Shown: positions 1,415-5,474, counted from the first letter of the stretch. The stretch: 8,637 nt of DNA from a virus (IMGVR_UViG_2734482537_000006), one strand, 5' to 3'. The notes: generated by a model from the sequence alone, not told the origin. Numbers and translations: made by a program.

Positions 1415-4400
1415 TATGCGAGCCTCACAATATAGTTAAATGCGATGTTTTTGACGGTGTTTTCCGCGTTACCAGCAGCGTTAACGGTGATGGTGTGTCC
1501 ATGTGAACCAATCGCAACAGAGTGCGTATGAGCACCAATACCGACAGTATGCGCGTGTGCACCCGCAGATGCTGCTGTGCCGGACAGTGAGTGTGTATGG
1601 TTTCCTTCTGAAGATGATTTACCTACCCATTGGGAGGTGCCACTGGTTAATGAGCCACTGATACCAACCTGATTAGTCCCGCTAACTTGAGTACTCCCTG
1701 CCGGAAACATTCCAGTAGGTTGACTCCCGCTATTCGTTCTGGGCCCAGTCTGACTATGTTGGTGGGCCCCAGCTGAACTTGTAGAGCCGCTCAGACTGTG
1801 CGTATGCGCCCCGGTGTTATTCGTGGATTTAGTGCCGTAATCAAACGACGATGTGGTTTTCGTCCCCAAATCCGTACTGGATGCGCTGGCGCTGTGGGTG
1901 TGCGATTTAATGCCATCCTGTTCCTGAGACAATACGGCACGACCACTGGCGGGCTTGCCCTTAATCGTCCAGCCACGCATATCAGGGATCACGCCTGACG
2001 GATAAGCGGCTGCAAGTTTCGGGTAAGCAGATTTGTCAAAAGTCTGCCCCTGCATCAGGGCATAACCAGACGGAACGGTATCTGATGGCCACGGGATTGG
2101 TGCACCGACTGGATAAAACTCTGCAGGAGGATGAGCCGAGGTGTAAAGCTGCGCCCACGGCGACCAGTTTGCGTCGGTCGTATCCCGTCGTGAACGAATA
2201 AATGCCGGAGCATGAGCACCGCTTGTACCACTCCAGCCGATGAGTAACTCACCTTCGCCAACGGCTGTCATCCCTTTCAGGTGAATGATATTTCCATACG
2301 CTGTTGGATATCCGTTGTTATACACCTCGTATAACTCAAGACCTGCTGCCCCCTGCGTATTGTCTGTCAGCGCGGCTACCCGACCTTTTGAAGCCAGATT
2401 AACTGATGATACTGCTGTTCCACCTGACGGTAGCGCCCCGATCTCTGATGCCGTTGGCTTATTTCTGGAGTTATAGTCCCTTCGCCAGCCAGGTGAATAA
2501 TCTGTTCCGTGATTAATATAGGTAAACTGGGCGTTGGTTGTTCCGCCACCGCTGGATGTGGTCGGAGTGGTAATGCGGATCGTCATCGCTGACTTTATCC
2601 CCATTACTTCAATGACAGCTCCGGCGAGATGAATATTACCGCAGCCAGTATCAGTAATGATTTTATTATTGCCATAAGACCAGGAACCCTTGCACATCCA
2701 GTATGGATGGTTAAATGCTCCCTGAGAATCCAGCCACTCGATAAACTGTGCAGTCGTCCAGTTTCCTGTTGTTGTGCTTACTGACCCACCGAAGGCACGG
2801 CAGGCACCAATATTTTTCGTAAAGGTGTCTTTGCCAGGGATATCCGCACCGTTCTGATCTTTCTGCAGACGTTTCTCAGCATTGTCATTGGCTGCTTTTA
2901 CTGCCTTTGGCGTTGCCGCCAGCGTTTCAGACGTGCTGTTGGTCGCGCTGCTTAGCTGGATTATCCCTTTCTGTGCTGTCGTTGCATCCTGTGCGGTGTA
3001 TTTCCCGTTAGCCAGGTCATACGCGGCCTTAACGGCTTTTGGTGTTGCCGCCAGTGACTCGGAAGTGCTGTTAGTCGCACTACTGAGCTGTACTATCCCC
3101 TTTTTCGTCGTGCTCGCATCCTCAAGCGCCACGGCGGATGCAATATCCTCTGCCCGTTTTGCCGCTGTCTCAGCGCGCGTTGCTGCAGATTCCGCCGTAC
3201 TTTTGCTCTGAGCTGCTGCCGTCGCACTACCAGCAGCCTCTGTCGCCTTCGTGGATGCCGTCGTGGCGCTGCCCTTCGCTGCTGACGCCTGTCTGGTCGC
3301 CTCATCTTTTGAAGCAGACGCCGATGATGCCGATGACGCCGCCGAACTGGCGGACGATGCGGCAGCCGTTTTTGAGGATTCTGCACGGGTTTCCGACGCT
3401 TTCGCGTTCGTTTCGGATGTCTTCGCTGCGGAAGCTGACCTCGCTGCTGCCGTGGCCTGCTCAGTGGCTTCGCCAGCCTTCGTTGTGGCTGTTGAAGCGG
3501 ATGATGCGGCGCTTTCTGCCGATTTTCCGGCGGCGGTGGCACTGGCTGAGGCCTGCCCGGCACTTGTTGACGCGGCGCTGGCAGACGACGCAGCCGCTGT
3601 TTTTGAGCCTGCCGCAGCTGAGGCACTCTGTCCCGCTGCCGTTTCAGAAGACCTGGCGTTCGTCTCGGACGTTTTGGCCGCCTTCGCAGAATTTGCAGCC
3701 GCCGTCGCCGAGGAAGCTGCGCTACTGGCGCTTGATGATGCGTTCGTTTCTGATGATTTTGCCGCCTCTTTTGAAGCCGACGCATCCCGGGCTGAGGTGG
3801 CAGCTTCTGACGCTTTCGTGGTCGCGGTGGATGCAGAAGTGGCTGCTGATTGTTGTGACGCTGCCGCATTCGTTTCTAACGTTTTCGCCGCACCGGCACT
3901 GGTAGCCGCCGCGCTTTTTGAGGACTCTGCAGCGGCAGCACTTTTTGAGGCTTCAGTGGCCTTTGTTGATGCCGTTCCTGCGCTGGAAGACGCTGACTGA
4001 GCCGACGAAGCGGCCTGTCCGGCTGACGTGCTGGCTGCACGTGCTGAATCTGCAGCATCAGTCGCATGGGTTGCCGCCTCACGGGCTGATGTGCTGGCAT
4101 CGCTGGCTGATTTCTTCGCGGCTGCCGTGTTCTGTGCCACCGCGGACGCGTTACGCGCCACCTCTTCCACCATCAGCTCAAAACGGCGCAGTGCCTCCGG
4201 ACGGGCATCATCCTCCGTCATGGCACCGAGAAAATCATTCAGCGTACCGGGTCGGGAATCTTCATACACGGTGATGGTCCCGGCATGTGACGGCGGGAAT
4301 CCTTCCACCAACAGAATAACGCTGTACTGACCGTACTCAACGTCCATGCTGTAACGCCCGGCTTCATCCGGATTTTCTGAGGCCAGCGTGTTCACCACCA

Positions 4401-4497
4401 CCGTGGTGCTGTTACGTTTTGCTTTCAGCTGGATTGTGCAGTTCTGTACCGGTTTTCCTGTGCCGTCTTTCAGTACACCTGAAATCTTTACTGCCAT
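1414..4497 (-). CDS. stf: Side tail fibre protein Stf (lambda Stf / T4 gp37-like), about 1027 aa
   Basis: N-terminus [26 protein letters not shown]... and C-terminus ...[45 protein letters not shown] match lambda Stf as I recall it. Between them is a long Ala/Ser/Thr-rich region with reiterated KTSETNA-like motifs, two 44-aa tandem repeats and multiple HxH motifs near the tip. I place the start at the ATG at 4497 (MAVKISG, preceded by GGGGTG); the ORF track begins at an in-frame GTG at 4503. Confidence 0.92.
2894..3107. repeat. Imperfect tandem repeat inside stf (period 132 bp / 44 aa; conserved core KGI(V/I)[11 protein letters not shown](S/T)[11 protein letters not shown])
   Basis: Seen in sequence: the Stf segment ...[73 protein letters not shown]..., and the same periodicity in the antisense ORF 2882..3211. 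DNA identity between the cores is roughly 75% by eye. Confidence 0.6.
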
Positions 4498-4508
4498 ATT
4501 CACCCCAC

Positions 4509-4534
4509 AAAAAAGCCCGCCTGAACCGGCGGGC
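4509..4534 (-). terminator. Rho-independent terminator (minus strand), copy 1, immediately upstream of the stf start
   Basis: Seen in sequence: the minus strand reads GCCCGCC GGTTCA GGCGGGC followed by TTTTTT (7-bp GC stem, 6-nt loop, T6). Confidence 0.7.
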
Positions 4535-4561
4535 TGTCATAACACTGTGTTACCTGGCTAA

Positions 4562-4646
4562 TCAGAATTTATAACCGACACCCACGATGAAACCGTCAGT
4601 GCGCCAGAGACGTGTTGCTGTGGCGACCGTCATCACTTCCGGTCAG
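4562..4646 (-). pseudogene. lom: lom 3' remnant: last 15 codons and stop, fused by an 83-bp deletion to an internal 39-bp lom segment
   Basis: Identical to lom 4875..4920 and 5004..5042 apart from one synonymous change (AAA versus AAG, Lys). No start codon or 5' region. Confidence 0.8.
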
Positions 4647-4810
4647 AACTCAACGTCCATGCTGTAACGCCCGGCTTCATCCGGATTTTCTGAGGCCAGC
4701 GTGTTCACCACCACCGTGGTGCTGTTACGTTTTGCTTTCAGCTGGATTGTGCAGTTCTGTACCGGTTTTCCTGTGCCGTCTTTCAGTACACCTGAAATCT
4801 TTACTGCCAT
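4643..4810 (-). pseudogene. stf: Truncated duplicate of the stf 5' end (55 codons then TGA created at the duplication junction), with its own ribosome-binding site and ATG
   Basis: The minus strand from the ATG at 4810 encodes [55 protein letters not shown], identical to Stf residues 1-54. Codon 55 is changed from TAC to TTC and followed by TGA, both created by the junction at 4646..4648. Confidence 0.8.
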
Positions 4811-4920
4811 ATTCACCCCACAAAAAAGCCCGCCTGAACCGGCGGGCTGTCATAACACTGTGTTACCTGGCTAATCAGAACTTATAACCGACACCCACGA
4901 TGAAACCGTCAGTGCGCCAG
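4648..4920. repeat. Tandem duplication, copy 2 (contiguous with the intact lom gene)
   Basis: See copy 1; 272 of 273 positions are identical. Confidence 0.9.
4822..4847 (-). terminator. Rho-independent terminator (minus strand), copy 2, immediately downstream of the lom stop
   Basis: Same GCCCGCC-GGTTCA-GGCGGGC-TTTTTT structure as copy 1, 27 nt after the lom stop codon. Confidence 0.75.
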
Positions 4921-5474
4921 TCGCCACTGCCGGAGCCTTCATAAGCAATATCAATGGCCACGGATTCGGTCGGGTTAAACTGCACGCCAGCTCCCCACGC
5001 CAGAGACGTGTTGCTGTGGCGACCGTCATCACTTCCGGTCAGCACGTCGTGCGTTTTCCCCTTGTTGTCAGTTACGCGGAGATAATCCCCGGAGAAAGTC
5101 GACACACGGCTGTAAGCCACACCCGCCATCGCATACGCGCTGAACCATTCATTCACGCGCACAGACGGCCCCGCCATCACGCTGAACCAGCGGTTACGCA
5201 CGGAATCTTCATGCCAGCGGGTATCGCTGTAACGGGTCAGCTGGCGATTCTTGTCTCCTGCATAGCTGAATGACGTCACCAGCCCCAGCGTATCCGTAAA
5301 CTCATAACGGTATTTCACGTTAATCCCGTTCAGATCATCACTGCCGGGAACGTTGGTCCGGGCATGAAGATACCCCGCGCTCAGCGTGGACTGATGTTCA
5401 GACGCCCATGCAGGCGCACCGGATACGGCCAGGCAAATGGCTGCGGACAAAATGGCTGCACAAACTTTACGCAT
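4875..5474 (-). CDS. lom: Outer membrane protein Lom (Ail/Lom/PagC family beta-barrel), 199 aa with N-terminal signal peptide
   Basis: MRKVCAAILSAAICLAVSGAPAWASEHQSTLSAGYLHA...GFIVGVGYKF closely matches lambda Lom as I recall it. It has a signal peptide ending AWA, a C-terminal aromatic residue typical of beta-barrel proteins, and a good ribosome-binding site (GAGAGG) upstream of the ATG. Confidence 0.95.
   Translation of the reverse strand: MRKVCAAILSAAICLAVSGAPAWASEHQSTLSAGYLHARTNVPGSDDLNGINVKYRYEFTDTLGLVTSFSYAGDKNRQLTRYSDTRWHEDSVRNRWFSVMAGPSVRVNEWFSAYAMAGVAYSRVSTFSGDYLRVTDNKGKTHDVLTGSDDGRHSNTSLAWGAGVQFNPTESVAIDIAYEGSGSGDWRTDGFIVGVGYKF

Follow-up and report, generated by a model that had tools for sequence, protein, structure and literature searches.

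A pseudo-tandem repeat between lom and stf in a Shigella sonnei lambdoid prophage and its possible origin as a heterologous patch

Overview of the locus

The sequence analysed here (IMGVR_UViG_2734482537_000006; 8,637 nt, referred to throughout as the window) is the tail region of a Shigella sonnei lambdoid prophage, with the gene order J, lom, stf, tfa, IS1. At the junction of lom and the side-tail-fibre gene stf lies a near-perfect repeat whose two copies carry different haplotypes, the first that of S. sonnei and the second that of intact-lom alleles common in Escherichia coli phages. We put the chance that this repeat is a real heterologous patch, in which a donor block would have been spliced beside the resident block, at about even. 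The features on which the argument turns are as follows (strand given where one applies).

4335..4646, unstranded: copy 1 (312 nt); contains the first 55 stf codons, the terminator nearer to stf and a 3' remnant of lom with a broken frame; no difference from S. sonnei loci
4602..4607, unstranded: single CGCCAG at the junction of the 83-bp lom deletion (sequence, alignment)
4647, unstranded: junction base A, between the lom 5042-equivalent and stf codon 55; neither parent's base
4648..5042, unstranded: copy 2 (395 nt) (repeat comparison, alignment)
4648..5094, unstranded: putative donor tract at its minimum extent, of intact-lom E. coli-phage type, consisting of copy 2 and adjoining lom (haplotype comparison)
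4921..5003 (equivalently 4915-4997), unstranded: 83 bp absent from S. sonnei lom, the presence of which restores the lom frame (alignment)
4875..5474, minus strand: lom, intact, 199 aa, with a 5' part of S. sonnei type and a 3' part of donor type (Pfam Ail_Lom)

Anatomy of the repeat and its junction

Comparison of positions 4335-4607 with 4648-4920 gave 273 nt with one mismatch (4568 T / 4881 C), a synonymous difference in the penultimate lom codon (Lys, AAA vs AAG). Tandem Repeats Finder reported a period of 313, 1.9 copies and 99% matches, and this confirms the near-perfect 312-bp repeat at 4335..4646, with one mismatch in 273 positions, that had been proposed from the sequence alone (hereafter the original prediction). 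Chance origin of a 273-nt repeat with a single mismatch is far too improbable to be entertained. A second block, 4602-4649 against 4998-5045, spans 48 nt and also contains one mismatch (4647 A / 5043 C).

The copies lie head to tail with a single novel junction at 4646/4647/4648. Copy 1 is without the 83 bp that stand in copy 2 between CGCCAG at 4915-4920 and CGCCAG at 4998-5003; this deletion and its CGCCAG microhomology, both described in the original prediction, were confirmed by alignment, and so was the odd A that it had placed between the copies. The junction-spanning sequence around 4647 is ...TTCCGGTCAGAACTCAACGTCC..., and the base at 4647 matches neither parent, lom having C after GGTCAG and stf having T before ACTCAACG. 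The join can be read as 0 nt of homology with an extra A or, alternatively, as a 2-nt AC microhomology with a C-to-A change. The window contains no Chi sites.

Single-copy relatives and the inherited deletion

Two sets of relatives were compared with the window: ten IMG/VR contigs with a 22-mer across the 83-bp deletion junction (L001-L010), and ten S. sonnei loci (L011-L020; ten places returned, 35 contigs read). The locus was single-copy in 20/20 of these loci with the deletion (delta83), including those of 53G and 75/02, which represent S. sonnei lineage II (HE616528.1) and lineage IIIc (CP019689.1), respectively (PMC5447701). In contigs reaching both sides, the sequence equivalent to window 1..4649 continues directly into 4998..8637, and the distance from the J end to the stf start is 651 bp in 10/10 S. 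sonnei loci vs 1048 bp in the window. Where S. sonnei lom is called, the product is truncated at 160 aa.

Because these single-copy relatives already have the delta83 junction, the 83-bp deletion is the inherited state of the prophage lineage and did not come after a duplication. The original prediction had treated it as an event private to copy 1, which the same junction in 20/20 single-copy relatives contradicts. Its suggestion to compare the locus with related lambdoid prophages was followed here: the repeat was absent from the other records searched, the junction was unique among them, and the comparison did not support origin by in-place duplication. In complete E. coli genomes the delta83 allele was not among the best-ranked places, all of which were two-piece, intact-type matches with the 83 bp, and no S. 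sonnei-type prophage with an intact lom was found in E. coli, the best match to the lom-J flank being 98.3%.

Two haplotypes and the extent of the donor tract

When positions 4650-5045 were left out of the window, comparison with the S. sonnei loci covered 8241 bp and gave five mismatches, at 4647, 5046, 5064, 5081 and 5094. There were 0 mismatches to S. sonnei in the 4646 bp left of the junction and in the 3543 bp right of 5094, the latter (5095-8637) including the J part. The bases at 5046, 5064, 5081 and 5094 are G,G,G,G in the window, whereas the delta83 loci examined all have A,A,T,A; this comes from direct reading of L001-L006 and from a base-by-base comparison of eleven loci. As sequence, the A,A,T,A haplotype of S. 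sonnei lom is GGTCAGCACATCGTGCG... and that of the donor GGTCAGCACGTCGTGCG...; one of the four clustered sites changes Lom residue 132, which is Leu in the window and Ile in S. sonnei (Leu132Ile).

Intact alleles were represented by 99 sampled lom-stf alleles and by 68 independent ones that cover the region fully. All 68 have G at the first three sites and 67/68 at the fourth, A,A,T,A occurs in 0/68, and the position equivalent to 4881 is C in 46/68. In a four-way alignment, copy 1 has the S. sonnei haplotype (T at 4568, delta83), and copy 2 and the 50 bp after it have the haplotype common in E. coli phages (C at 4881, the 83 bp, G,G,G,G). Since 4881 C, the 83 bp and G,G,G,G match intact-lom alleles and the rest of the window equals S. 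sonnei, copy 2 and adjoining lom, from 4648 to at least 5094, appear to be foreign to the resident prophage. This finding tells against the recent replication-based rearrangement in place that the original prediction had favoured, as copy 2 carries a different haplotype.

The stretch 4648-5094 is 100% identical to 21/99 sampled alleles, and 4648-5100 is 100% identical to Escherichia phage PhiR30_1 (PV340558.1). The right edge of the donor tract lies between 5095 and 5232; going rightwards, different donors first mismatch the window at positions from 5120 to 5233, and the switch from donor to S. sonnei sequence between 5094 and 5120-5233 occurs without an indel. Over the 273 nt compared, copy 2 is identical to 23/68 intact alleles and one base off from 17 more. 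As independent alleles of this segment are often identical, the single mismatch between the copies is uninformative on age, and the near-zero divergence taken by the original prediction as a sign of recency loses its force.

The S. sonnei delta83 allele has four private substitutions within 50 bp beside the deletion, with no other difference from the window in the surrounding 8 kb. These may mark an older small patch within the resident pseudogene allele itself, or a scar of error-prone repair tied to the deletion.

Restored lom, doubled terminators and the stf' fragment

The window encodes a full-length Lom of 199 aa that matches Pfam Ail_Lom (PF06316) over positions 1-199 of 199 (E 2.5e-122), ends in ...GVGYKF, i.e. 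a family-type last strand with a terminal aromatic residue, and is identical to a widespread E. coli prophage Lom. The resident lom of the S. sonnei lineage is a pseudogene that stops at residue 160, and the patch brings it back to the complete 199 aa; the gene is likely able again to encode a complete 8-strand Ail/Lom barrel. At the threshold of the promoter scan, no sigma-70-like promoter for lom was detected. The repeat brings further features with it, listed here.

4827..4848, minus strand: terminator-like hairpin 1, the native lom terminator (8-bp stem, 7 GC pairs, U tract)
4514..4535, minus strand: terminator-like hairpin 2, directly upstream of the full stf start (8-bp stem, 7 GC pairs, then TTTTTTGT)
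4643..4810, minus strand: stf' open reading frame of 55 codons, comprising Stf residues 1-54, then F and a junction-made stop, with the same ribosome-binding site as stf (translation)
4562..4646, minus strand: lom 3' remnant, promoterless, with no start codon and with its frame broken by the deletion (translations, alignment)

The doubled terminators, the extra stf ribosome-binding site and ATG, the 55-codon open reading frame and the lom tail of the original prediction were all found. Identical hairpin and U-tract terminator-like sites occupy 4848..4827 and 4535..4514, both on the minus strand; each has the 8-bp stem (7 GC pairs) followed by UUUUUUGU by which intrinsic terminators are predicted from sequence, and the stf-proximal hairpin gave -22.6 kcal/mol in a 64-nt fold. 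The stf ribosome-binding site and ATG are each present twice. The stf' product covers positions 1-54 of 134 of Pfam phage_tail_N, the N-terminal attachment domain, and this 55-aa Stf fragment is expected to be inert and non-functional.

With two terminators in series, stf would probably be better insulated in the lysogen from transcription of lom. Late transcription of the lambda type is antiterminated by Q and passes intrinsic terminators, and little effect on it is expected. The proposal that the doubled terminator lowers side-tail-fibre dosage is accordingly doubtful, and the argument for it weak.

Proposed origin of the repeat

By comparison of the alleles, a single event between the S. 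sonnei allele and an intact allele of a common type would yield the window exactly. The repeat would for this reason be a pseudo-duplication (resident block, junction, donor block; net +396 bp), which looks like a tandem duplication because the donor is homologous to the resident throughout. From these comparisons we infer the mechanism, and which allele was the recipient, as follows.

The starting point would be a resident lom pseudogene with the inherited 83-bp deletion. An incoming stretch of ~450-585 bp, derived from another lambdoid phage or prophage whose lom was intact, would have extended from stf codon 55 backwards across the start of stf, the terminator and the 3' end of lom and on into lom. 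On the lom side it would have been joined by a homologous crossover between 5095 and 5232, and on the other side donor stf codon 55 would have been joined illegitimately to resident lom 5042, with 0-2 nt of homology and the odd base at 4647. The route would be one-ended homologous plus illegitimate recombination or, equivalently, breakage of the resident lom followed by repair synthesis on an ectopic lom-stf template and closure by end-joining. Recombination of the first kind is documented in E. coli, where 3/4 junctions were without homology (PMC3240628). The window junction cannot be derived from a k-mer graph of the two parental arrangements, the overlap being at most 2 nt.

Several points weigh against a real patch of this kind. 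The junction at 4647 rests on a single assembled record. Neither 5,426 complete E. coli genomes nor 50,697 phage records contained the duplication; the best places in them were multi-piece and single-copy, spanning 688 or 398 bp. A junction 24-mer was not found in genome, viral or metagenome contigs (a weak negative for the genome collection, which holds one genome per species), a 31-mer with N at 4647 was not found in viral contigs, and the junction-spanning open reading frames of 55 aa and 57 aa have no exact product on record. The donor allele was not found in any S. sonnei genome searched, and no genome ids were shared between donor-allele and delta83 contigs in a capped IMG/VR sample of 120. 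S. sonnei Stx1 phages were considered as donors and rejected, there being no Shigella phage among the lom-stf matches. Homology-facilitated illegitimate recombination is very rare in E. coli, at ~3e-10 per recipient, and in its classical form has 3-10 bp of microhomology, usually with a deletion (PMC3240628). The unexplained base at the join and the pseudo-duplications seen across single-N joints in sister drafts are both artefact-like.

Alternative explanations

The last of these points leads to an assembly, scaffolding or polishing artefact, in which two sequences of the same locus were set head to tail and the true genome is single-copy; this we regard as unlikely, but far from negligible. 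The pieces would be a resident-type contig end (1-4646) and a donor-type contig or locally reassembled patch from 4648, with a placeholder or erroneous base at 4647, and the true state would be the delta83 allele together with a second lom locus or a contaminant elsewhere, or simple allele replacement. The caution about assembly error in the original prediction was justified, since sister drafts show joint artefacts in the same region: 4/10 of the related IMG/VR records (L005-L008) are scaffolds with single-N joints there, and several joints, among them those shown for L007 and L008, have flanking pieces that overlap and mimic tandem duplications. An artefact would also account for a base at 4647 foreign to both parents, for copies that differ just as two alleles would, for the end of copy 1 falling 4 nt short of the first diagnostic site, for a junction unique among all records searched and for a window that starts 83 nt into IS1, like a short-read contig end. 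It is opposed by the base at the join, which is A in a window that has no N anywhere, and by the inability of a de Bruijn graph to make a join with at most 2 nt of overlap. It further requires the donor haplotype, not known from S. sonnei records, in the sample, and the donor-type piece runs on for 3.5 kb as perfect S. sonnei-type J, so that at least one haplotype switch is needed regardless.

The single-N joints lie at 7274 and 10455 in L005, at 1065, 2987 and 4254 in L006, at 3411 and 6838 in L007 and at 2571 and 3638 in L008. The overlapping pieces at the scaffold joints are stf, lom and J alleles 83-100% identical to each other, and the apparent duplications are false; L005 and L007, taken up as further tandem stf/lom arrangements, were rejected as single-N scaffold joints. 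A k-mer arithmetic for contig-like ends, based on copy 1 ending 45 nt past the point of deletion divergence, was dropped as numerology, as the start of copy 2 misfits the same k.

Two further explanations keep the repeat real and alter its history. In the mirror image of the proposed event, which we hold to be improbable, the recipient would be an S. sonnei-type prophage with an intact lom and the delta83 fragment 4335-4646 would be incoming: it would have crossed over homologously on the left and been joined illegitimately on the right, or else have ligated to itself as a 313-bp circle and entered through a single crossover in the 5' region of stf. This too yields the window exactly, including G,G,G,G right of copy 2, and in E. 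coli degraded fragments that recircularised and entered by a single crossover were the common outcome, and the duplications measured 109-950 bp (PMC3240628). In the records searched, however, an S. sonnei-type prophage with an intact lom was not seen (the E. coli lom-J match of 98.3% being the best), all S. sonnei loci found are delta83, both alleles would be needed in one cell with the common one as donor, and a 313-bp circle is small for efficient closure; the circle route is ranked lower than the heterologous patch because the recipient it needs was not seen. Tandem duplication in place, whether through template switching or through slippage, with the 83 bp of copy 1 lost afterwards by slippage, is more improbable still, and very much so, even though head-to-tail geometry, one novel junction of low homology and a 6-bp direct repeat at the deletion are what it would leave. 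The deletion is the fixed single-copy state of the lineage, and copy 2 with 50 bp beyond it differs in haplotype from the resident. Nor can collapse of the repeat restore the S. sonnei allele: recombination through the 45-bp blocks of the window repeat would yield delta83 with G,G,G,G, where S. sonnei has A,A,T,A, and a recombinant haplotype of delta83 with G5046 had no match in IMG/VR. To rescue duplication in place would take a duplication in an unseen ancestor, a single-nucleotide change, the deletion, loss of copy 2 and a four-substitution patch.

Relation to known recombination processes

Homology-facilitated illegitimate recombination was reportedly described by de Vries and Wackernagel in 2002 and by Prudhomme et al. 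in 2002. The heterologous patch resembles this process in that one end is anchored by homology (here in lom, 5095-5232) and the other joined illegitimately, and in that the donor is distinct from the recipient. The process was shown in E. coli by Amarir-Bouhram et al. 2011 (PMC3240628), and junctions there are often without homology, as may also be so in the window. It differs in that the incoming DNA of the window is homologous throughout, giving a pseudo-tandem repeat and not a foreign replacement of a deleted stretch, and in that the window shows no recipient loss, only the stretch from 5043 to the crossover being swapped for its homologue (net +396 bp). The join of the window (0 nt and A, or 2 nt AC and a mismatch) falls outside the classical range of 3-10 bp of microhomology.

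A recircularised fragment entering by a single crossover (PMC3240628) would likewise duplicate a few hundred bp in direct orientation at the homologous locus and leave one illegitimate closure junction, but fits the window solely if the recipient had the intact lom and the 313-bp circle carried delta83. Slippage or unequal sister exchange shares the head-to-tail arrangement, the one novel junction and the minimal microhomology; its copies, however, begin identical to the resident, whereas the window has two haplotypes whose difference reaches 50 bp past the repeat. The standard lom-terminator-stf order and sequence are those of lambdoid mosaic exchange (Rac, lambda, phage 434, Stx phages). In the phage records that match best, identity to the donor tract is 97-100%, and the lom-stf region matches at least one place in ~4,900/5,426 complete E. 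coli genomes. Ordinary lambdoid mosaicism involves two homologous crossovers and leaves one copy, whereas in the window one join is illegitimate. The false duplications of draft assemblies (L007, L008) have in common with the window content that overlaps across a one-base joint, but their joints hold N and the window holds A and no N.

Flanking genes and other features of the window

The remaining annotated features of the window are listed below.

833..1414, minus strand: tfa, tail-fibre assembly, 193 aa (Pfam Caudo_TAP, E 4.6e-44)
1414..4497, minus strand: stf, side tail fibre, 1027 aa, with its ATG at 4497 (Pfam phage_tail_N, Phage_fiber_2, Collar)
5505..5522, minus strand: terminator-like hairpin in the J-lom intergenic region (fold -16.3 kcal/mol, z-score -4.6)
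5545..8637, minus strand: J, tail tip gene, 3' part, continuing past the window end (Pfam GpJ domains)

The hairpin at 5505-5522 is symmetric and terminator-like on both strands, and is predicted to end J-direction transcripts just upstream of lom. The Stf protein has exact matches in S. sonnei 53G, 75/02 and other contigs. Within stf, positions 2884-3954 contain several imperfect direct-repeat families (46-nt and 29-nt units; a pair of 107 nt separated by 132 nt) in the middle of the gene, where the best Pfam Phage_fiber_2 repeat match covers residues 462-502, i.e. ~2992-3114; these internal repeats are ordinary fibre-shaft periodicity.

On the minus strand, positions 873-1071 gave a full-length match to Rfam IS009 (RF02111; 218 bits vs a gathering score of 117) wholly within the tfa coding sequence, and the model of this candidate small-RNA family may reflect conserved tfa sequence. 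This was the sole match in the Rfam scan of the window and is unrelated to the repeat. Window positions 1-83 are the end of IS1 (GGTGATGCTGCCAACTTACTGAT... on the minus strand) and resemble a short-read contig end; in S. sonnei genomes IS1 lies ~0.8 kb downstream of tfa, and the prophage arm past tfa is interrupted by IS1. The 749 bp between IS1 and tfa (84-832) are AT-rich, contain no genes and have several imperfect inverted repeats. In 254 complete E. coli genomes this stretch is present at 99% identity or more, and no annotated features fall within it in the eight best-matching records listed.

Implications

The locus presents no new kind of system: it reflects either known recombination processes or an assembly failure of a familiar kind, at a site well known for mosaicism. 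What stands out is the repair of a fixed pseudogene. For the reading of prophage sequences it carries a warning that near-identical repeat copies are no proof of recent duplication, because independent alleles of the lom-stf segment are often identical, and it marks a spot where S. sonnei and E. coli draft assemblies generate false repeats.

If real, the repeat would be a clean natural footprint of short-patch trading among lambdoid prophages, with one legitimate and one illegitimate join, and with both parental alleles kept side by side the event could be reconstructed base by base. A pseudogene fixed in at least S. sonnei lineages II and III would have regained its full reading frame. It is possible, at a probability that we place somewhat short of even, that one-ended homologous plus illegitimate capture of incoming lambdoid phage DNA took place in the Shigella chromosome, repaired the lineage-fixed lom pseudogene (an Ail-family surface protein) and left the dead resident copy behind as its footprint. 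If that is true, phage superinfection could occasionally reverse reductive evolution in S. sonnei.

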